From the sequence record OZ346228.1: DNA of 64,000 bases. One strand, given 5' to 3'. The stretch comes from a phage. The notes beneath the pieces were generated by a model, which ran no database searches, was not told where the DNA came from, and saw only the letters and a program-made list of their open reading frames with translations. Below are positions 1,050 to 59,122 of the stretch, one piece after another. The translations under genes and the position numbers were made by a program. Positions within the stretch are counted from its first letter, which is position 1; each line of letters begins with the position of its first letter.

Positions 1050-3121
1050 TGGCAACAGCTGTTTTTAAACCTTACCGTGATTACTCTACAATGGCTGCAC
1101 GGTTTCATTACCGAACAGTTCAGGATACTGCCGTTCCTGGTAGGGATTATGATCATGTTGAGGGCGATGTAACTATCCCAGTTGGGGCAACCAGTATTGA
1201 GATCCCCGTGGAAATTGTTGACAAATTACCCAACAGGTTGCCAAGAAGCTTCTTTATGGAGTTTTCATCAAAATCTCAAGGGGTGATGATTGGAACACAA
1301 AGGGCGAAATGTACAATAGTTTCAGATGAGAATCTTGACAGGATATCTTGGGATACTGTTGAGGAGAGAATGTTTCACCCAAGATATTGGGTTACAACCA
1401 CTCAGCAGACTGAAAGTACCTGTATTGTTGCAGATAACAACTGTTGTATTAACCGTTTAGTGTCAAGAACATATGGAGGTATGGCTGGGTGCATTTGGGA
1501 AACAGTTGACAAGTATGACCATTTCGGTATTGGGTTTGATGATCACTATGAGATGAGAAACACCAAGCTTTGGTTCAGAATGTCAATAACCAACGCCAGC
1601 AACTTCTCCACTCCTGAAAAGATGATTATGACTGTAGACCTTGTTGATGGCACAATCATCTATGTTCCTTTAGCTCAATATGCTGTCAGCATCTCAGAGG
1701 ATAAGAATGTTGCAGAAATTCATATTGATTTTGAGGACTGCGTCGGGATGGACCAGAACAACAACATGATGGGTGTTGATCCTCGGCAGGTGAGAAGGAT
1801 TTTAATACCGCTTATGCCTAAAGACTGGGTAAGTAATAGCACAGACCCGAGAACGGAAAATGTAAAGTGTGAGTTGCGCCTAGATCTGCTTCAGCCAGAC
1901 ACAGGCTGGAAAATGATGCAACTTAACAATATCCAGGTGAGAGAGCACGATGTTGGGATCTGCACCGCATATGACGATATGTGGAACGTGTCTCCTTTAA
2001 GGGTGTTGAACAATATCAAGCGTCTGGGCTATACCGGAACCATAAACCATTATGTTGGTATGAGTCATTATTATGACTACACATGGTCAGGAACCCAATG
2101 GTCTATAAACAGAACAGGAGCGCTAAACGCTGCAGCTTATAAATGGCATGATGATTTTATGTACAATGCCAAACGACATAACTTCGACGTTATGCAATCT
2201 GTAAGTTTTGAGCTTTTCAGCGATGCCTGCCCGTTGGAATGGACCCAAAGAGACTGGAACGATAACTACGCTAAAACAGGGTATACACCTTGTAGCTACC
2301 TCCTGTCTCCAACCATTGAAGAGGGTATGAATTTCCTTACTGCAGTATTTAAGAATTTTGCATCAGCCGCTATGAGAAACAACCTGCCAGTGATTATGCA
2401 GGTTGGTGAACCGTGGTGGTGGTACAATACCGATACTCGTAGACCTTGTATTTATGATTACCCTACAAAACAGGCGTTTTATGATGAGACAGGCGAGTAT
2501 GCATTAGATATTGGGACTATTGACGATCCTAAAACTGGCGGTGTTTACGATAAGTATGTAGCATTTTGTCGTGGTAAGCTTGGCGCTCGTATTGCGGCTA
2601 TTTCAAAGGCAATAAAGGCACACGCTGCATCAGCTCAGATGACAGCTCTGCTGTTTTTCCCAACCATTATGGAAACCGAGCTTACGCAAAAGCTTAACCT
2701 TGCTGACCAATATAAAAAGGAAGCAGGTGCTCTTGATTTCTTCTGCACCGAGTGCTACGATTGGGTGATGCAGGGAGGTATTGAAAAGGCAAAAGAGTCT
2801 GTAAACATACCTATCGTTAAGTTAGGTTGGCAACCGTCTGAAATACAATACCTTGCAGGGTTCGTTCCTAGTAAAGAGCTTGCTCCGGTATATGGCTACG
2901 ACCCAACCAGGAATTACCAAGAATTTTTATGGAGATGTATCTGCGGAAACATGGCAACCATAGAGTATAGATACCCTGAGGTAAAACAGTATGTGTGGGC
3001 ATACCCGCAAGTAATGTCTGACAGCATCACTGTTACAGCCAGAGATTCTACCGTGCTTCATATGGGGCAGGTTGCTCTGAAAGGGTATGTAGAAGATGTT
3101 GTCCCTCCAGACTTCTCATAA
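1049..3121 (+). CDS. hypothetical structural protein (690 aa)
   Basis: Long uninterrupted ORF, translationally coupled to the upstream gene; lies before the tail-fibre genes. Confidence 0.55.
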   Translation: MATAVFKPYRDYSTMAARFHYRTVQDTAVPGRDYDHVEGDVTIPVGATSIEIPVEIVDKLPNRLPRSFFMEFSSKSQGVMIGTQRAKCTIVSDENLDRISWDTVEERMFHPRYWVTTTQQTESTCIVADNNCCINRLVSRTYGGMAGCIWETVDKYDHFGIGFDDHYEMRNTKLWFRMSITNASNFSTPEKMIMTVDLVDGTIIYVPLAQYAVSISEDKNVAEIHIDFEDCVGMDQNNNMMGVDPRQVRRILIPLMPKDWVSNSTDPRTENVKCELRLDLLQPDTGWKMMQLNNIQVREHDVGICTAYDDMWNVSPLRVLNNIKRLGYTGTINHYVGMSHYYDYTWSGTQWSINRTGALNAAAYKWHDDFMYNAKRHNFDVMQSVSFELFSDACPLEWTQRDWNDNYAKTGYTPCSYLLSPTIEEGMNFLTAVFKNFASAAMRNNLPVIMQVGEPWWWYNTDTRRPCIYDYPTKQAFYDETGEYALDIGTIDDPKTGGVYDKYVAFCRGKLGARIAAISKAIKAHAASAQMTALLFFPTIMETELTQKLNLADQYKKEAGALDFFCTECYDWVMQGGIEKAKESVNIPIVKLGWQPSEIQYLAGFVPSKELAPVYGYDPTRNYQEFLWRCICGNMATIEYRYPEVKQYVWAYPQVMSDSITVTARDSTVLHMGQVALKGYVEDVVPPDFS

Positions 3122-3133
3122 TCAGGAGATAAA

Positions 3134-4174
3134 ATGTCAAAACCTAGTTTTCCATTAGAGATTTGGGCAGAGGAGGATCAGGTTCTGCCTAACACCCACA
3201 GACAGAACAGGCTACGCCCGATCGATGATTTGTGGAGAAAAGGTTGGGATCTTGGTCAAAAGCCATCCTGTGAAGAACTTAACTATATTTTCAATATGCT
3301 CGGAACTTGGGCAAAATACATTGCTGACGAGCAGATCCCCGCTCAAGAAGGCCGTTATCTGGTACGTGATAATAACTTGAGCGATCTTTTGAACATCCCT
3401 GTTGCCCGTAGAAACCTTGGGATTATCACTAAGGAAGAGGCAGACGCCAGGTATGTAAAAGTTACAGGTGATACAATGACAGGCCCCTTGGGGTTGCAAC
3501 GTATCAACTTTAAAGCTGCCGAGACAGATAAGGCTTGGATAGAGACAACTATTGGCCCAGATAAGACAACTCTCGACTTTGGGTTAAGTGATAATACCGG
3601 GTCGTTTGATGATGGTGGTACATCTACAGTGGATGCGTTTCGTTGGAGATTCCAGCCAACTCAGCCGGATATTAATCCAGAGTTCACTTTGATGTACCTT
3701 AACGCGATCACGGCTAATCGTGCGCTGTTGAAAGTGGTAGGCAATGTTGAAGTTGTCGATAACATGAGGTGCAATAACCTTACTATCAGCAATACAGCAA
3801 CATTCACCAACTGTAATGTGGCTAGTCAGTTGACGGCTGGGTCAGTATATGTTAATGGTGGTGCAAGTTGTGACAGTATGGTTGTAAGAAGCCAGCACTG
3901 TGTTGTCGGTAACAGAAATGTGGTGCGCTCCGTGAATGGAGTGACGGCTAACGGTAACGGTGATGTAACGATCACTATCCCGCAGACAGGTGTGCAAGAC
4001 ATCAGAATCGGTGCAAGACTTGTGGACGGCGTTTCTGAATCTCCAATCCGCAACGGCTACGTTGTCACAGGCTGGCATTTCGGTGACAAAAAAGAGATGC
4101 GTGGTTCAACCTACTGGGCAGGACCCTTACAAAAACTTGTAAATGGTCAATGGATCACTGTTAATTATGCATAG
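3134..4174 (+). CDS. tail fibre protein (paralog 1)
   Basis: 346 aa; GDTMTG-type fibre motif (VKVTGDTMTGPLGL); N- and C-termini conserved with ORF 5184-6230 (C-terminal QKLVNGQWITVNYA); followed by a Tfa-like chaperone. Confidence 0.7.
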   Translation: MSKPSFPLEIWAEEDQVLPNTHRQNRLRPIDDLWRKGWDLGQKPSCEELNYIFNMLGTWAKYIADEQIPAQEGRYLVRDNNLSDLLNIPVARRNLGIITKEEADARYVKVTGDTMTGPLGLQRINFKAAETDKAWIETTIGPDKTTLDFGLSDNTGSFDDGGTSTVDAFRWRFQPTQPDINPEFTLMYLNAITANRALLKVVGNVEVVDNMRCNNLTISNTATFTNCNVASQLTAGSVYVNGGASCDSMVVRSQHCVVGNRNVVRSVNGVTANGNGDVTITIPQTGVQDIRIGARLVDGVSESPIRNGYVVTGWHFGDKKEMRGSTYWAGPLQKLVNGQWITVNYA

Positions 4175-38606: not shown

Positions 38607-38641
38607 TTGACAACAGTCATAGGGCCTACTATAATGGCCCT
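38607..38641 (+). promoter_or_regulatory. sigma70-type promoter with palindrome overlapping the -10
   Basis: TTGACA, 17-nt spacer, TATAAT; palindrome AGGGCC-TACTATAAT-GGCCCT spans the -10. Confidence 0.55.
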
Positions 38642-38666
38642 ATCAAAACGAAAGGGGACCACAGCA

Positions 38667-45930: not shown

Positions 45931-46121
45931 TGTGCCACCTGGCGGGGCCGCTGTCAACACTTTTCAAAAAATTTTTCTAACCTGGTGCGCTAACCGTTGC
46001 AACCTGGCGGGGCCAGCCTGGCAGGACCTAACTGACCAGGTAGGGGAGAATGAAGGCTTGTAAACCTGGTGGGCCTATGCTACAGGATAGGTAACAATTG
46101 AAGAGGAGGTACAAAAATGAT

Positions 46122-46232
46122 ATGATCCCCCTGGAAAATGTAGCTATTAATGACTCTGAGGCTATCGCCCTGGTTGAAAAGGCTATGGCGGGAGCGTTGG
46201 AACATAAAGAAGAGTACGAAAATGGTGGTTAA
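46122..46232 (+). CDS. hypothetical micro-protein (not in ORF track)
   Basis: 36 aa read manually (MIPLENVAINDSEAIALVEKAM...); GAGGAGG RBS 11 nt upstream. Coordinates approximate. Confidence 0.3.
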   Translation: MIPLENVAINDSEAIALVEKAMAGALEHKEEYENGG

Positions 46233-46286
46233 CCTGGCGGGGGCGGCAGGTGGATTCTATCATAAAAATAATTTAAAATAGTAGTT

Positions 46287-46312
46287 GACAACAAGGTTAA
46301 TCATGGTATTAT
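46287..46312 (+). promoter_or_regulatory. sigma70-type promoter
   Basis: TTGACA, 16-nt spacer, TATTAT. Confidence 0.45.
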
Positions 46313-46362
46313 TACCCTACAAGGTGAACAACACCGCACTAACCAGTAAAGAGGATAAATTT

Positions 46363-46560
46363 ATGAACGCATACGGGATCAAAGTACGTCGCAACACTCG
46401 CCAGGTGGTCACCAATCAAGTGATTTGCCGGGTGGATGTAACCATCAACAACGGGCAAGGCCTTTATAAATTTCGTCGCGGTCATAGCTATACCCTGCAA
46501 CAGCTTAATCGTTGCGCCCTGACAAAAGGTCAGATCAACCACTGGTTTAATAAAAAATAA
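46363..46560 (+). CDS. hypothetical small protein
   Basis: ATG after AAAGAGGATAA; the track start at 46285 lies in the promoter region. Confidence 0.4.
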   Translation: MNAYGIKVRRNTRQVVTNQVICRVDVTINNGQGLYKFRRGHSYTLQQLNRCALTKGQINHWFNKK

Positions 46561-46563
46561 GTA

Positions 46564-46592
46564 TTGACATACAGTCAGACACCAAATACACT
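46564..46592 (+). promoter_or_regulatory. sigma70-type promoter
   Basis: TTGACA, 17-nt spacer, TACACT. Confidence 0.45.
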
Positions 46593-46624
46593 AAAAGCAC
46601 AAAAGACACTAAGAGGATAAAATC

Positions 46625-46810
46625 ATGAAAACCACTACCTTTAATTTTGATAATGCAGACTTTTCTTTTTCTGATGTCAAGAACTGCCGCCGTGATCGTG
46701 GATTTTACAAGGCTTATAATCTGGTGGGCCTGGACGATGACAATAATTTGCACGAAGTAGCTGAGATCCAGCTTGACAGATTGGACGGGAAAGTACTAAA
46801 AACTTATTGA
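46625..46810 (+). CDS. hypothetical small protein
   Basis: 61 aa; AGAGGATAAAATC RBS; promoter 46564-46592 upstream. Confidence 0.45.
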   Translation: MKTTTFNFDNADFSFSDVKNCRRDRGFYKAYNLVGLDDDNNLHEVAEIQLDRLDGKVLKTY

Positions 46811-46812
46811 GT

Positions 46813-46857
46813 TTATTTTTAGATGGCCTTGACACCAGGGCCATCAATAAAGTAAAC
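46813..46857 (+). repeat. palindromic promoter-associated repeat element, copy 1
   Basis: TTATTTTTAGATGGCCTTGACACCAGGGCCATCAATAAAGTAAAC; inverted repeat GATGGCC/GGCCATC around a TTGACA; identical to copy 2. Confidence 0.6.
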
Positions 46858-46890
46858 TAACCACAGTTGAGCGGAAAAGGAGGCTTAAAG

Positions 46891-47010
46891 ATGAGCACTA
46901 CACGCCAGCACACAAAGGTAACCATCATCGTTTGCATCATTGGGTACATCCTGGCGCAAATGTTGATGGGTAGCGCCAACGGTGTCGCAAAATTTTTCTT
47001 AAACTTTTAA
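46891..47010 (+). CDS. hypothetical small membrane peptide (not in ORF track)
   Basis: 39 aa read manually (MSTTRQHTKVTIIVCIIGYILAQMLMG...); AAAAGGAGG RBS; single hydrophobic helix. Confidence 0.4.
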   Translation: MSTTRQHTKVTIIVCIIGYILAQMLMGSANGVAKFFLNF

Positions 47011-47038
47011 TTGACAAGCTAACTTAAATCGATATAAT
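47011..47038 (+). promoter_or_regulatory. sigma70-type promoter (consensus -35 and -10)
   Basis: TTGACA, 16-nt spacer, TATAAT. Confidence 0.6.
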
Positions 47039-47089
47039 AAGCACATAAACGGGAAAACTTCCCAGAACACACAAAAGGAGAAAAACACC

Positions 47090-47431
47090 ATGACTACTAT
47101 GACCGCCTCAGAAAAAGCTATGCAGATCGCTGAACTGAAAAAACAGATCGCAGACCTTGAGAATAAGATCGATAACTTTGAAATCGACGAGGACAAGTAC
47201 GACGAAAACTATGATGAATGGTTAGACGAGATCTACGGCGAAATTATGATCGGAAACATTTCTTTTCTTCCGTCGCGTATCCTCAAGGAGCTAGATCCTA
47301 TCGCTTACCGCTGCGGATTTAGCGACTACATCGACAGCCTGGATATTGAGGACGATGAAGAATACCAGGAATTACAGACAGAGTTAGAAGAAGCAAAAGA
47401 AGAGCTTGCGGAGCTGGAAGAAAACGAGTAA
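47090..47431 (+). CDS. hypothetical acidic coiled-coil protein
   Basis: 113 aa; strong promoter at 47011-47038 and AAAGGAGA RBS upstream. Confidence 0.5.
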   Translation: MTTMTASEKAMQIAELKKQIADLENKIDNFEIDEDKYDENYDEWLDEIYGEIMIGNISFLPSRILKELDPIAYRCGFSDYIDSLDIEDDEEYQELQTELEEAKEELAELEENE

Positions 47432-47433
47432 GC

Positions 47434-47478
47434 TTATTTTTAGATGGCCTTGACACCAGGGCCATCAATAAAGTAAAC
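47434..47478 (+). repeat. palindromic promoter-associated repeat element, copy 2
   Basis: Identical 45-nt sequence to copy 1; intergenic between 47090-47431 and 47521-47766. Confidence 0.6.
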
Positions 47479-47520
47479 TTTATACTGTTAACACTGAACT
47501 AATGCATAGGAGTTAAAACC

Positions 47521-47766
47521 ATGGCAGCACTAATCACCAAATATTATGCCCCTACCAACACCAAAAGCGCCCGTATCATGGTAAAAGGCTTCGGACGTAA
47601 AAAGGTGTACACCTGGGATTATGCCTTAGACACGGAAGACAACTACACCAACGCAATGACCGATTTTATTAATGAACTAAATAAGCAGATCTTGACAAGT
47701 TATAAAGTGACCGATATTGCTTATATAGGTGAAGGCGGGATCTGTTTTGTAGGCATTGTGAAATAG
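47521..47766 (+). CDS. hypothetical small protein
   Basis: 81 aa; follows the palindromic repeat element and an AGGAG RBS. Confidence 0.5.
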   Translation: MAALITKYYAPTNTKSARIMVKGFGRKKVYTWDYALDTEDNYTNAMTDFINELNKQILTSYKVTDIAYIGEGGICFVGIVK

Positions 47767-47812
47767 TTATTTTTTCGGTGGTCCTGGTTGCAGGGCCATC
47801 TATAAAGATAAT
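47767..47812 (+). repeat. degenerate relative of the palindromic repeat element
   Basis: TTATTTTTTCGGTGGTCCTGGTTGCAGGGCCATCTATAAAGATAAT; same architecture, diverged sequence. Confidence 0.4.
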
Positions 47813-47840
47813 TTATTAACACCATGAAAGGAGAAAGTAC

Positions 47841-48194
47841 ATGATCAGCGGGGCAAGTTTTATTATTGGCGCTATTGCTACGGCTTTAATTGTAAATAAG
47901 ATCCAGGATAAAAAGGAAAGAGGAAGTACCGCCCTTGCAGAATATCCATTTTGGGCATTCAACGATAACGAAGATTATATTATAAAGTATAAAAATAAAG
48001 AAGGTGACCAAGTAACACCGCGACCGATCCCGGCTTACAAAATGCAGGAAACACTATACCGCCTGGAGGCGGGTGGCGCAAAAATTGTAGACTTTTGGGG
48101 ATACGACCACACAGATCAGGAAGTTATAAAGCGCCGTATCCGGGCTATTCAGGCCAATATTGAAGTTAGCAAGGGGGGAATATATGAAAATTAA
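47841..48194 (+). CDS. hypothetical protein with N-terminal TM helix
   Basis: 117 aa; AAAGGAGA RBS; hydrophobic N-terminus. Confidence 0.5.
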   Translation: MISGASFIIGAIATALIVNKIQDKKERGSTALAEYPFWAFNDNEDYIIKYKNKEGDQVTPRPIPAYKMQETLYRLEAGGAKIVDFWGYDHTDQEVIKRRIRAIQANIEVSKGGIYEN

Positions 48195-48381
48195 TTTCGA
48201 GAAAATTGTAAAGCGCCCTCATGATTCCGAAGAGCTGCCAGAACGCCGCCAGCGTAACAATAAACTGAATAAGCCAAAAAGGTTTGGGAAGATCTGGCGT
48301 AATCATTATGATCGTAAATTGCCCGGCCTACTTTTGGAACGTGAACGACAGGCAGAACGATACCGCCATAAAGACAAATAA
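48184..48381 (+). CDS. hypothetical basic protein
   Basis: ATG at 48184 after GGGGGGA; the track start at 48160 overlaps the upstream gene; Arg/Lys-rich; terminator follows. Confidence 0.4.
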   Translation: MKINFEKIVKRPHDSEELPERRQRNNKLNKPKRFGKIWRNHYDRKLPGLLLERERQAERYRHKDK

Positions 48382-48389
48382 CAACCAAC

Positions 48390-48418
48390 GCCCCGCCATT
48401 GTGCGGGGCTTTTTATTT
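48390..48418 (+). terminator. rho-independent terminator
   Basis: GCCCCGC-CATTGT-GCGGGGC then TTTTTATTT. Confidence 0.7.
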
Positions 48419-48538
48419 CTATCCTACGAATAGCGCCCCTGGTTGGCCCTGTAAGCGCCAAAAAGGCCCCCACCTATGCAATCGCCCCTTTAACCTGAAA
48501 ACATCGCCCAGGGCCGTTTCATGGCGTTAAAAATATCA

Positions 48539-48566
48539 TTGACATCGTCAACAGGTTAGCTATACT
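48539..48566 (+). promoter_or_regulatory. sigma70-type promoter
   Basis: TTGACA, 16-nt spacer, TATACT. Confidence 0.5.
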
Positions 48567-48598
48567 AACCACATCAAAGAGAGAAAGGAGTAAACGCC

Positions 48599-48859
48599 AT
48601 GCGTAAATTAAAAAATTTTGATAAAGTTGATGTTATCCTGAATAATTTTTACTACTGCAACAACAAGGCTATTTGGTGGCGTGATAGTTCCACCGATAAA
48701 GTCAGGGCGCGCTTTCTTCAGGGGCACTGGCAAGGCCGCCCAGTGATTAAAATCATGGGGCAATCGGTAGCGTTTAAAAATTGCCGCCGTGTTGATGACG
48801 TTGAGGAGATTTTAAACATTTTGCGCCACAATAATTTAAAAAATAGTGTTGACAAGTAA
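48599..48859 (+). CDS. hypothetical protein
   Basis: 86 aa; promoter 48539-48566 and AAAGGAG RBS upstream. Confidence 0.5.
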   Translation: MRKLKNFDKVDVILNNFYYCNNKAIWWRDSSTDKVRARFLQGHWQGRPVIKIMGQSVAFKNCRRVDDVEEILNILRHNNLKNSVDK

Positions 48860-48876
48860 GCCTCAATAAGTATACT
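48849..48876 (+). promoter_or_regulatory. sigma70-type promoter
   Basis: TTGACA, 16-nt spacer, TATACT. Confidence 0.5.
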
Positions 48877-48933
48877 TAAACACACAGGCGGGAAAACTTC
48901 CCGCCACTAACAAAGAAAATAGGAGAAAATATC

Positions 48934-49557
48934 ATGACCACCGTTAACATTACCGCAGGTTACAATTTATCTTTCGACGTGCTGACCGACGAACAAAAAG
49001 AAAAAGCCGTTGAAATGGTCCGCGAAAGAGAAGAACACAGCGGGGATAACTTTTTTGCAGAAAGTGTAATTGAATACTATAAAGAATATGTTTTTCCAGA
49101 GTATGGCCTTGAAGATACCGAAGTACATTGGTCAGGCTTTTGGTGCCAGGGTGACGGCGCGTCAATCAGTGCTGAAAACGTGGATTTAGAAAAATTTTTA
49201 CGTAAAGTAAAGGCCCTGACCAAGTTCCGATCAATTCGTCACTTGTTCGGCACAATGCACGATGGCGAGTTATCAGCCAGTGTTGAACGCGACAAGTACA
49301 GCCATTACAGCCATGAAAACACTGTAAGCGGGTACATTGATACCACTTGGCTAGATCTGACCGCCAAACAAGAAAACAAAGTGGAAGACCTGGAAGAACT
49401 GATCACCGAGACGGTACGGGAGCTATCCCGCAAGGTTTACGTAGACCTGGAGGAGGCCTATCTAGAACAGTTCACCGCAGAAAACCTGATCGGCCTTATC
49501 GAGGCCAATGATTGGCGGTTTGATGTCGATGAATATGGTGAGATGACTTTTTCATAA
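48934..49557 (+). CDS. hypothetical protein
   Basis: 207 aa; promoter 48849-48876 and AGGAGAAAA RBS upstream. Confidence 0.5.
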   Translation: MTTVNITAGYNLSFDVLTDEQKEKAVEMVREREEHSGDNFFAESVIEYYKEYVFPEYGLEDTEVHWSGFWCQGDGASISAENVDLEKFLRKVKALTKFRSIRHLFGTMHDGELSASVERDKYSHYSHENTVSGYIDTTWLDLTAKQENKVEDLEELITETVRELSRKVYVDLEEAYLEQFTAENLIGLIEANDWRFDVDEYGEMTFS

Positions 49558-49647
49558 ATAAAGTGTTGCAATAACCTAAAAACCTGCTATATTAAAACTC
49601 AAGGGGGCAAGACGTTTGCCCCAACACAAAACAAAGAGGATAACATC

Positions 49648-50028
49648 ATGAAAAACACTACCAAGGCTATTGACACCGTTATGTTTAACCTGGTTACATT
49701 CCGTGAAGATATGAAAGATCTTCCTCGTGAAACAGTGTGCGACCATATCGAAAACTATCGCAAACTAATCAAAGAGTTGCCTTTAAAACGTGATCAATAT
49801 GCGGCTAACGCCATGCTTAATGCCATGATCAAAAAGATGATCCAGTGTGATTTAACCCTGGCCTATGATTATGCAGGCGGTCGTTTTGCAGTATACAATC
49901 AGCCCGTGCCCGGTATGAGCACCACCGAAGAATTGCACGCGCTCAATCTAAAACAAGACGTGTGGGATAGTATGCCTCGCGTGGTGGTATGGGTAGAAAG
50001 CGGAAAGATTTACGGCGATAATTTTTAA
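49648..50028 (+). CDS. hypothetical protein
   Basis: 126 aa; AAAGAGGATAA RBS; terminator follows. Confidence 0.5.
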   Translation: MKNTTKAIDTVMFNLVTFREDMKDLPRETVCDHIENYRKLIKELPLKRDQYAANAMLNAMIKKMIQCDLTLAYDYAGGRFAVYNQPVPGMSTTEELHALNLKQDVWDSMPRVVVWVESGKIYGDNF

Positions 50029-50037
50029 TCAGGTAGC

Positions 50038-50064
50038 AGGCGGCATATTTGCCGCCTTATTGTT
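50038..50064 (+). terminator. rho-independent terminator
   Basis: AGGCGGC-ATATTT-GCCGCCT then TATTGTT. Confidence 0.5.
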
Positions 50065-50092
50065 AATCAGAACTGTAAAAGAGGTACATAGA

Positions 50093-50464
50093 ATGGAATT
50101 TATTATTTTGGCTGTATTGGTTGCCTTGTTTAACGCCTGGATCGCTGGCAAGATGGGAAGATCCGCCTTTTTATGGTTTATTATATCTATTTTCCTGGGG
50201 GTGGTTGCAACTATTGTATTGGTTATCCTTGCAATTGTTGACAAGGGGAATAATAGAAAGGGTAAAGTATTTTCAGACCTGTACGACGCTCAAACGTTTG
50301 TCAACGCCTATTATAGTGATCTTCCAGTCTCCCTACGTTGCAGCCTTGCACAACAGGTTTTCGATGAAGCTAAAACCAGAGATCACGCCCATGAGATTTG
50401 TTTAACTGAGGCGGATCGCCTATTTGAGAGGAATAGAAAATATGTGGACCAGCCGTTTAAATAA
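50093..50464 (+). CDS. hypothetical membrane protein (two predicted TM helices)
   Basis: ATG after AAAGAGG; the track start at 50060 lies in the terminator. Confidence 0.45.
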   Translation: MEFIILAVLVALFNAWIAGKMGRSAFLWFIISIFLGVVATIVLVILAIVDKGNNRKGKVFSDLYDAQTFVNAYYSDLPVSLRCSLAQQVFDEAKTRDHAHEICLTEADRLFERNRKYVDQPFK

Positions 50465-50683
50465 TGCCACGTTAATTAACCCCTTTAGTAAAGATTTGAA
50501 GCCAGCCGCCTGGCGGGATGGATTCAATAACGAACGCTTTATTTTCAGGCCTGATCTTGAGGAATTTTATAACAATGGATCGAACAACAGCGGAGATAAT
50601 TTTTCTTGTGGTGTGTGTCGTGATAGGACTCCTGGGGGGCCATTGTAGATCGCGTCACTACTACCAGAAGGAAAGGGGAGACG

Positions 50684-50803
50684 ATGACAACCAAGGATAA
50701 GCCCCGCACCGATAAGGTGCGCCGTGTTATGGTATGGCTTGAGATCATCGCCCTTGAAATATTGTTAGGCGTAGGGATGTATTTTATCTCTGTAAGTAAC
50801 TGA
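50684..50803 (+). CDS. hypothetical small membrane peptide (not in ORF track)
   Basis: 39 aa read manually (MTTKDKPRTDKVRRVMVWLEIIALEILLGVGMYF...); AAAGGGGAG RBS; terminator follows. Confidence 0.35.
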   Translation: MTTKDKPRTDKVRRVMVWLEIIALEILLGVGMYFISVSN

Positions 50804-50807
50804 TAAC

Positions 50808-50838
50808 GGCCCCCGATCCCTGGGGGGCCTAACTTTTT
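50808..50838 (+). terminator. rho-independent terminator
   Basis: GGCCCCC-GATCCCT-GGGGGGCC then TAACTTTTTTC. Confidence 0.6.
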
Positions 50839-50946
50839 TCAAAAAATTTTTCTTCCGGGGTGTTGCAATCCGGTCCTGAATATGGATAATAACAATCAAC
50901 GGGGAAACATCCCCACCAACACAAAAACCAGAAAGGAGAAACAAAA

Positions 50947-51147
50947 ATGAGCAACAATATCCGCGTTATTAACTTCAAAAAAGAAGAAAAAATTGCCGTG
51001 CTGATTGACGGTCAAGAAATCTTCAAGGGCGACTATGAAGATCATCAAACGGCGATTAGTATCACTCGCGTGATTGGTTACCATAATTTTTACCCCCAAG
51101 GCGCTGAGGCGGCGGTTAAACGAATCAAAGAGATTGTAGGCCTGTAA
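50947..51147 (+). CDS. hypothetical small protein
   Basis: 66 aa; AAAGGAGAAAC RBS; followed by palindromic repeat copy 3. Confidence 0.45.
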   Translation: MSNNIRVINFKKEEKIAVLIDGQEIFKGDYEDHQTAISITRVIGYHNFYPQGAEAAVKRIKEIVGL

Positions 51148-51150
51148 AAT

Positions 51151-51194
51151 TTATTTTTAGATGGCCTTGACTCTAGGGCCATCAATAAAGTAAA
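51151..51194 (+). repeat. palindromic promoter-associated repeat element, copy 3
   Basis: TTATTTTTAGATGGCCTTGACTCTAGGGCCATCAATAAAGTAAA; 3 substitutions from copies 1 and 2, all in the loop. Confidence 0.6.
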
Positions 51195-51240
51195 TTTAAA
51201 CCCTGTTAAAATACCACGCAGTTAACAAGGAGTAATGATC

Positions 51241-51540
51241 ATGTTTATCCAGGCTAATAATCTTTATTTCTTTGATGGTCAGATCGTAGATGGTGTGGAA
51301 GTGGAGATCACTGGGTGCCCTGGTGGTCAGGCTATGACTTTTCGGAATAATGCCTTTGATGATTCTCATATCGTTATGAGAATGGAAGTTACAAAGCTGG
51401 ACGACAAGAAAACGCTCATTGACTATTCCGTGAAAGATCATCCAGACTACCACATGATCTATGGTGATTTGTGCATTGTTGACCGTGACAAGGTGGGCGG
51501 CATTGTGATCGCTATTGTGAACGATGTTTTCTCTGTATAG
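51241..51540 (+). CDS. hypothetical protein
   Basis: ATG after AAGGAG; terminator follows at about 51598-51631. Confidence 0.45.
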   Translation: MFIQANNLYFFDGQIVDGVEVEITGCPGGQAMTFRNNAFDDSHIVMRMEVTKLDDKKTLIDYSVKDHPDYHMIYGDLCIVDRDKVGGIVIAIVNDVFSV

Positions 51541-51597
51541 TTCCGCAAATGATGCAAAAGAAGGCCCCTAGCAGGGCCTACAGCGATATAATCACAT

Positions 51598-51631
51598 AAA
51601 GGCCATGCAACCGCATGGCCTTTATTATTTT
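51598..51631 (+). terminator. rho-independent terminator
   Basis: AAAGGCCATGC-AACC-GCATGGCCTTT then ATTATTTT. Confidence 0.65.
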
Positions 51632-51763
51632 GGCGTTACAGCGGCCCCAAGGCGCTTAAAAATTTTTTAAAGAAGTACTTGCATCAAGCCCTACAATATG
51701 GATAATAGGACGTGTCAGGGGGGGAGGCCCCAATCATTAACCGGATAGATAGGAGTTAAAACC

Positions 51764-52048
51764 ATGGCTATTGTTACCGCTGGCGATGTAGTAGAAATGG
51801 AAGCAAAATACTTAAAAGCGGGTATGCATATCCTACGCAACGATCTTGAACTGGTCCTGACAATGGTTGACTATAACCCAGGGCAAGATTATCCAAGTGT
51901 TGACTACTTTTTTGAGTATGTTGATGAAGAGTTGAAAGAGGATGAGGCCTATTGCGGTGAGTTCTGCAACTTCTTTTGTCCTGATGAGGTTGTAAAGGTT
52001 ATCTATCAACCTGGCGTAGCTTTCCCGCTGCACGCTATCAATAAATAA
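51764..52048 (+). CDS. hypothetical acidic protein
   Basis: 94 aa; AGGAG RBS; terminator follows. Confidence 0.45.
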   Translation: MAIVTAGDVVEMEAKYLKAGMHILRNDLELVLTMVDYNPGQDYPSVDYFFEYVDEELKEDEAYCGEFCNFFCPDEVVKVIYQPGVAFPLHAINK

Positions 52049-55462: not shown

Positions 55463-55675
55463 TCATAGTCTACCACCTCTGAACTCTTCGTGCTCAGGCA
55501 TAATAGAGAACCAGATATCTACGATGTCCTCCCACGTCAGGTCATCAGCCTCAGGATCTGTCTGGGACGAAGATGAAGAGTCCTCAGAATCTAAGTTTTC
55601 CTCTTTAACTGGCTCATCCAAGGGACATATGGTCACTCCTTCGGATGTCTCTTCAGATGCATGTGTGTTGATCAT
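55463..55675 (-). CDS. hypothetical acidic protein
   Basis: 70 aa, Ser/Glu/Asp-rich. Confidence 0.4.
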   Translation of the reverse strand: MINTHASEETSEGVTICPLDEPVKEENLDSEDSSSSSQTDPEADDLTWEDIVDIWFSIMPEHEEFRGGRL

Positions 55676-59046: not shown

Positions 59047-59122
59047 TCGGTCTCCTGTCTTGTTAAGATGAAGGTATTATTTCACACAGGGTTGGCGTTG
59101 TCAACACCTGTGTGCAAGAAAA

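Follow-up and report, generated by a model that had tools for sequence, protein, structure and literature searches.

Promoter-early stem-loops (PeSLs) have been described in the T4-type phages RB49/phi1, PST/T4 and nt-1/KVP40 as repeated intergenic motifs that combine a sigma-70 promoter and an AT-rich upstream tract with a stem-loop that may precede the -35 and -10, separate them or overlap either one (Arbiol et al. 2010, PMC2839356; Comeau et al. 2014, PMC4122927). They are concentrated among the ORFans of hyperplastic regions, where one phage has PeSL cassettes a closely related one can have just one chimeric element instead, and some copies are degraded to the stem-loop alone (PMC2839356; PMC4122927); the stem-loops are also reported to terminate transcription (PMC2839356). 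Activity of the promoter in vivo and the formation of mini-circles are further traits of a PeSL. We found no mention of PeSLs outside the T4-likes in the searchable literature. Here we analyse a 64,000-nucleotide (nt) stretch of phage DNA (record OZ346228.1; the whole stretch is hereafter the window) from an rV5-like Vequintavirus genome, in which a 49-nt imperfect palindrome is repeated four times, always in the same direction, over 4.4 kb of ORFan genes on the + strand. We consider it reasonably probable that this element is a PeSL-like boundary module of small early-gene cassettes, and hence one that lies outside the T4-likes.

The four copies, numbered in the order in which they were recognized and given here by position, are as follows.

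Copy 1, 46810..46858, + strand: an extended hairpin (folding free energy, dG, -25.1 kcal/mol; z -7.0; 81.5 bits with a covariance model of the element); lower stem 46810-46819 with 46849-46858, upper GC stem 46822-46831 with 46836-46845, internal loop 46820-21 and 46846-48, apical loop 46832-46835; predicted promoter with -35 TTGACA at 46829-46834 and -10 TAAACT at 46853-46858; stop TGA 46808-46810 upstream, next ATG at 46891.
Copy 2, 47431..47479, + strand: 79.7 bits; predicted promoter with -35 at 47450-47455 and -10 at 47474-47479; stop TAA 47429-47431 upstream, next ATG at 47521.
Copy 4 (diverged), 47765..47813, + strand: 68.1 bits, E ~1e-12; lower stem 47765-47774 with 47804-47813, upper stem 47777-47786 with 47791-47800, including two G.U pairs; loop GTTG at 47787-47790, TTGACA absent; stop TAG 47764-47766 upstream, next ATG at 47841.
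Copy 3, 51147..51197, + strand: dG -21.5 kcal/mol, 78.6 bits; lower stem 51147-51157 with 51187-51197, upper stem 51160-51169 with 51174-51183; predicted promoter with -35 TTGACT at 51167-51172 and -10 TAAATT at 51191-51196; stop TAA 51145-51147 upstream, next ATG at 51241.

A preliminary description of the region, made from the letters alone, had reported two identical copies, a third with three loop substitutions and a degenerate relative, each placed after one gene and ahead of the next. The identity of copies 1 and 2 extends over 46 of 46 nt (46813-46858 and 47434-47479). Copy 3 (51151-51195) does carry three substitutions relative to copy 1, of which only two fall in the apical loop (A46834->T and C46836->T); the third is in the 3' tail (C46857->T), where a G->A change in the 5' flank offsets it and preserves the base pair. 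The degenerate relative is real (copy 4, 47765-47813) and covaries with its rV5-type orthologues. The placement is equally as described, all four copies starting 0-3 nt past a stop codon and standing 33-45 nt before the next start codon, with a GGAG-type Shine-Dalgarno sequence and ATG downstream of every copy.

The element is confined to one genus and, within a genome, to one cluster. The arms, searched as GATGGCC-N10-GGCCATC with up to two mismatches, gave five matches in the window, one of them (at 55523) spurious, against 0.14 expected from shuffles. The covariance model, built from 36 distinct instances, returned the same four copies only across the window and positions 1-50,000 and 100,000-138,583 of the relative naswa (~150 kb), and found no further diverged copies in the window and the rest of naswa, 50,001-51,400 excepted. 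In BLAST searches the 55-nt element matched Vequintavirus only, at 350 places in 121 records (~3 per genome), and all four sites are orthologous in rV5 and the twelve other genomes examined, isim and naswa among them. A 21-base pattern had no match in 185,579 bacterial/archaeal species genomes and, in IMG/VR, matched two contigs, Vequintavirus only. A 14-base pattern, GGGCCATCNATAAAG, was also tried on IMG/VR and rejected, as it gave only chance single matches in unrelated contigs; the 21-base pattern is specific.

The T-run that precedes the GC stem can pair with the AAAGTAAACT that follows this stem on its 3' side, a pairing that the preliminary description had missed. The element is thus an extended, interrupted hairpin of 49 nt and ~20 base pairs (bp), in which a 10-bp lower stem of A/U-rich pairs with one conserved U.G is separated by a 2x3 internal loop from a 10-bp upper stem (the GATGGCC arms plus U.G, U-A and G-C) that is capped by a 4-nt apical loop. 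Its onset coincides with the stop codon of the upstream gene. As + strand RNA, copies 1, 4 and 3 fold at -25.1, -22.4 and -21.5 kcal/mol with z-scores between -6 and -7, and no other of the 70 promoter-like sites in the window has so stable a fold; minus strand folds reach -16.8 kcal/mol for copy 1 and -8.1 kcal/mol for copy 4. With DNA folding parameters the element folds far more weakly. An N4-type DNA hairpin promoter and a cruciform were considered as readings of the palindrome and are disfavoured by this much weaker folding with DNA parameters and on the minus strand.

Selection on the fold was assessed in an alignment of 36 distinct sequences from 14 genomes. Standard pairs occupy 97.1% of pair cells, and shifting the 3' partners by 1-3 columns lowers this share to 35-58%. 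In the lower stem, four pairs have changed at both partners (G-C/A-U, U-A/C-G and an exchange of U-A for A-U), and none of 500 column shuffles reached the covariation score. In the upper stem, every one-sided change remains paired via G.U. Overall, 84 G.U cells stand against 9 A.C cells, counts that are not phylogenetically independent; as independent events, about six changes are wobble-compatible and one is disruptive. Orthologues differ from one another only in the apical and internal loops, two independent insertions of 1 nt included, and the adjoining 5' untranslated regions and coding ends vary without such a limit. In aggregate, the alignment shows that the element is under selection to fold as an interrupted hairpin on the transcribed + strand.

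This polarity bears directly on the proposal, made in the preliminary description, that the copies are operator-bearing promoters. On that account a dimeric phage or host regulator would bind the GATGGCC-N10-GGCCATC duplex and occlude the -35, in keeping with the perfect 7-bp dyad around TTGACA in three copies and with arms that are invariant in 14 genomes. As to the promoter half of the proposal, the copies match the sigma-70 consensus at 10/12 positions. The operator half we consider unlikely: an operator should tolerate changes without strand preference, and the one-sided arm changes are G.U-compatible on the + strand only, which argues that the structure is read in the mRNA sense and not as a DNA operator. 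Furthermore, the A/T flanks beyond the supposed operator covary, the half-site centres lie 17 bp apart and so off helical phase, and copy 4 has the dyad but no -35. A regulator common to these and other promoter palindromes had also been suggested, and is disfavoured by two further sites whose palindromes carry different, unrelated arms.

38607-38643: a promoter with a 12/12 consensus match, TTGACA-17-TATAAT, its -10 within a perfect 8-bp palindrome, ATAGGGCC...GGCCCTAT.
59076-59115 (palindrome at 59104), minus strand: the equivalent of rV5 promoter P150, TTGACA-17-AATAAT with TG at the extended -10, its -35 enclosed by CACACAGG...CCTGTGTG.

The first of these had been noted as a palindrome over a -10 near 38621-38641, and 38619-38643 does enclose the -10 of the 12/12 promoter. 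Another promoter palindrome had been placed at 51561-51580; the palindrome is present (51562-51579), and the site has no convincing -35. There, AGGCCCCTAGCAGGGCCT precedes a TATAAT that lacks a good -35, and a canonical terminator (51596-51625) comes after. Because this palindrome is terminator-like on the minus strand, 51562-51625 may serve as a stop in both directions and not as a promoter.

At the DNA level, three of the four copies plausibly contain a sigma-70 promoter. A consensus scan, which reports consensus match only, scored TTGACA-18-TAAACT in copies 1 and 2 at 10/12 and TTGACT-18-TAAATT in copy 3 at 9/12. In copies 1-3, TTTATTTTTA lies 2-11 nt upstream of TTGACA, the T-tract occupies the position where an UP element would sit, and the -35 is enclosed by the 10-bp GC stem. 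Conservation within the hairpin speaks in several respects for the predicted promoter. The A and C of TTGAC, unpaired in the loop, are invariant in all copy 1-3 sequences, with their neighbours free to vary; the base after TTGAC, the weakly conserved sixth -35 position, can be any of the four nucleotides; and the 3' side of the lower stem, which holds the -10, is more conserved than its 5' pairing partner. In addition, the predicted rV5 promoter P194, which has no hairpin, has the same TTGACAC...AAGTAAACT ends, including the AAGTAAACT -10 region.

The predicted start lies ~7 nt beyond the 3' end of the hairpin, so the hairpin would be transcribed only by read-through from upstream. All copies lie within apparent operons, 3' of strong consensus promoters and with no intervening terminator in our scan, and are presumably co-transcribed with the genes before them. 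Given the predicted start, the hairpin in read-through RNA would form the 3' end of the preceding cistron. The earlier suggestion of RNA hairpins at mRNA 5' ends is thus upheld for the hairpin, by covariation and wobble asymmetry, and not for its 5'-end position. Copy 4 has retained the hairpin and lacks a -35, from which we conclude that the function of the hairpin is independent of the promoter.

By these measures the element has the sequence-level features of a PeSL, the promoter as a consensus match. Like PeSLs, the copies are intergenic repeats in which an AT-rich tract leads into a predicted promoter of sigma-70 type, and a stable stem-loop overlaps that promoter; they are followed by a Shine-Dalgarno sequence and start codon; they sit among ORFans in an indel-rich, hyperplastic early region; cassettes bounded by two copies are reduced to one chimeric copy in close relatives; and a degraded copy keeps the stem-loop only. 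The flanking genes belong to PHROGs of unknown function with no Pfam match, and indels are abundant around the region among relatives. The element differs from PeSLs in that its genome is a Vequintavirus rather than a T4-like phage, with four copies only in one cluster; its stem pairs the upstream T-tract with the -10 region and so covers the whole predicted promoter; its spacer is 18 nt rather than 17; and it has no sequence similarity to published PeSL stems (G-run, loop, C-run).

The best architectural match, as judged by modelled folds, is to the early RNase III sites of phage T7 (R0.3, R0.5, R1, R1.1 and R1.3), a family of similar hairpins that separate small early genes read by the host RNA polymerase. 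In both, a lower stem of 9-10 bp, a small internal loop, an upper stem of 9-10 bp and a loop of 4-5 nt make up a fold of about -20 to -25 kcal/mol, and R1 in particular (9-10 bp, 2x3 loop, 9 bp, 4-nt loop, -20.2 kcal/mol) gives a dot-bracket string near-identical to that of the element. The layout of the element is that of an RNase III-type site, with about two helical turns of double-stranded RNA split by an internal loop and placed between cistrons. It differs from the T7 sites in a lower stem that is almost pure A/U, and cleavage is predicted from architecture, by analogy. Two minor E. coli promoters of T7, B and C, are located within or next to R0.5 and R1, and in record NC_001604 the annotated start of promoter C (3113) falls inside the R1 hairpin (3102-3148). 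By analogy, the overlap of promoter C with R1 offers a precedent for a promoter that overlaps a processing site.

This likeness also favours a rival account, possible if doubtful, in which the element is an RNA device only, an intercistronic hairpin for processing or stability (a T7-type RNase III site or a barrier to exonucleases of the kind formed by repetitive extragenic palindromic (REP) elements), and no promoter. Copy 4 speaks for this account, having kept its hairpin through compensatory and wobble changes with no -35, as do the tolerance of 1-nt insertions in the would-be spacer, an architecture nearly superimposable on T7 R1 and R0.5, and the location of all copies in apparent operons behind strong promoters. 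Against it stand the invariant unpaired A and C of TTGAC in copies 1-3, a -10 side of the lower stem conserved above its 5' partner, and the recurrence of the same -10 region in the hairpin-less P194.

A third account takes the element to be an intrinsic transcription terminator, as the Murica RefSeq record does in labelling copies 3 and 4 as 45-nt "terminator" features. That PeSL stem-loops are reported to terminate, and that the hairpin begins right after a stop codon, are compatible with this label. A GC hairpin directly followed by a U-tract is not what the copies present, however: AAUAAAG follows the GC stem and mixed sequence follows the full hairpin, with no U-tract on either strand, and the terminator scan skips the element yet finds canonical terminators at 48390, 50808 and 51596. 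We regard termination here as quite improbable, in agreement with the preliminary description, which had judged the copies not to be classical terminators.

The copies also delimit small gene cassettes, all on the + strand, a role that the preliminary description had not seen.

46859..47433, + strand: copy 1-2 cassette, holding a 39-amino-acid (aa) membrane ORFan, a 12/12 promoter and a 113-aa ORFan.
46891-47010, + strand: the 39-aa membrane ORFan of this cassette.
47011-47038, + strand: the 12/12 consensus promoter of this cassette.
47090-47431, + strand: the 113-aa ORFan of this cassette.
47480..47764, + strand: copy 2-4 cassette, holding an 81-aa ORFan (47521-47766).

A 621-bp unit, made up of the copy 1-2 cassette and one repeat copy, is absent from the genomes magaca and ime, each of which has a single chimeric element with the left flank of copy 1 and the right flank of copy 2. 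On each flank magaca differs from naswa, in which the cassette is present, by 1 nt in 2480. The ime genome is only 95-99% identical, and the losses in magaca and ime are therefore probably independent. In 241Ecol014PP the 81-aa gene is absent and a chimera of copies 2 and 4 remains, with the crossover within GGGCCATC[A/T]ATAAAG. Deletion-bearing genomes were tallied by searching for the cassette, as BLAST with the junction joined split pieces and gave no exact count; the copy 1-2 cassette could be detected in 115 of 121 records, and the other 6 include fragments. These genome comparisons show that copies recombine, leaving single chimeric copies and deleting the intervening genes. Copies within a genome also share apical-loop variants beyond what orthologous descent accounts for (permutation p ~0.0006, in a test that takes no account of phylogeny), which suggests gene conversion among them.

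Recombination and conversion among short, imperfect, repeated palindromes would also fit a selfish or neutral repeat with no regulatory role, akin to miniature inverted-repeat transposable elements (MITEs) or to REP elements. The REP elements and bacterial interspersed mosaic elements (BIMEs) of enterobacterial chromosomes do resemble the element as short imperfect palindromes just 3' of stop codons that are transcribed, and REP elements can stabilise upstream mRNA. They differ in number and reach: hundreds of copies against four, and none of the element in any bacterial genome scanned. The element is also without an associated RAYT transposase and has a promoter-like core. Many dispersed copies, in host genomes too, would characterise a REP- or MITE-like family; here four clustered copies in one orientation occupy fixed orthologous sites across the genus, have no match in the 185,579 bacterial species genomes or in other phages, and are under strand-specific selection for pairing. 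A selfish or neutral origin of this kind is, in our assessment, very improbable.

For a PeSL-like boundary module, we propose the following course of events. In read-through early RNA the hairpin would mark or process the end of the upstream cistron, most probably through RNase III cleavage in the internal loop, and cleavage would leave the GC stem as a protective 3' hairpin, as at the T7 early sites. At the DNA level, three of the four copies would also act as a sigma-70 promoter of modest strength (T-tract, TTGACA, 18 nt, TAAACT) that re-initiates transcription for the next ORFan, ~27-38 nt before its start codon. Every ORFan would in this way become a self-sufficient, portable expression unit. 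We put forward only tentatively the further idea that one 49-nt sequence is read twice, as a sigma-70 promoter in DNA and as an RNase III-type hairpin in RNA, forming a "cut-and-restart" device that is also a preferred crossover point. The stretch that runs from the T-tract to the end of the -10 would then fold in the read-through RNA and leave each ORFan self-insulated, and its palindromic form would favour it as a site for cassette exchange outside the T4-likes, perhaps because the endonuclease VII-like enzyme of the phage cuts it as a cruciform.

Several observations weigh against the module and its proposed parts. At 18 nt the spacer is suboptimal, and two natural variants lengthen it to 19 nt; the -10 matches the consensus at 4/6 positions only; copy 4 has no -35; and the rV5 paper, which lists 33 promoters and 20 terminators, includes none of the element sites, an omission that counts against the promoters. 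In the literature on Vequintavirus early genes we found no transcription-start or RNA-seq mapping. A covariance model search of T7 found nothing, and there is no sequence homology to the T7 sites; Rfam, scanned with 44-54 kb at E<=1, likewise gave nothing relevant, which leaves architecture as the ground on which RNase III cleavage is predicted. The absence of a 3' U-tract makes the terminator role claimed for PeSL stem-loops unlikely at the element, and that part of the analogy fails. The sharing of loop variants comes from a test uncorrected for phylogeny. Any direct repeat can mediate deletions, so that recombination at the element may be a by-product rather than its function.

Megablast with 46000-52000 matched 124 phage records at 90-99% identity, nearly all Escherichia Vequintavirus, that is, rV5-like myoviruses with genomes of ~137 kb. 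The region itself is a series of small + strand genes annotated "hypothetical", and a few kb upstream of it the rV5 genes are annotated as homologues of RB49 ORFans. The gene just 3' of the copy 4 cassette (~48181-48381) is annotated as T7 gp1.1-like in I29, Murica and 241Ecol014PP. The 81-aa ORFan (47521-47766) has homologues of 42-46% identity in the unrelated siphoviruses Skure, CAjan and SLUR25, and weaker ones in Pseudomonas and Klebsiella phages, a spread that is consistent with a horizontally mobile cassette gene. Seventeen GenBank records of the MG0656xx series (for example MG065662 and MG065672) are titled "Campylobacter phage" with C. jejuni as the stated host; they are ~95% identical to E. 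coli Vequintavirus genomes over the element region, and the host label looks doubtful.

The phage of the window also has a 685-bp deletion relative to naswa, to which it is 99.8% identical (window 46625-46810; naswa locus L122 4986-5669). As a result, the orthologues of rV5 gp190 and gp189 form one 61-aa open reading frame (ORF), and the predicted promoter P194 is lost. Its proximity to copy 1 led us to consider an element-mediated event, which we rejected: the junction, at ~46763-46769, lies inside two ORFs and has 7 nt of microhomology.

In Vequintavirus genomes the element sites are currently overlooked or labelled as terminators, and some of these phages are therapy candidates; the same sites are positions at which cassettes could be engineered in or out. 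Near-identical genomes that differ by one repeat-bounded cassette provide a clean natural example of cassette loss, and covariation together with wobble polarity is rare comparative evidence for a stem-loop that acts as RNA. If the element is the PeSL-like module proposed here, PeSL-type regulatory cassettes would not be peculiar to T4-like phages. They would serve large lytic phages more generally as a means of keeping small accessory genes portable, with a transcript boundary and a promoter for every such gene.

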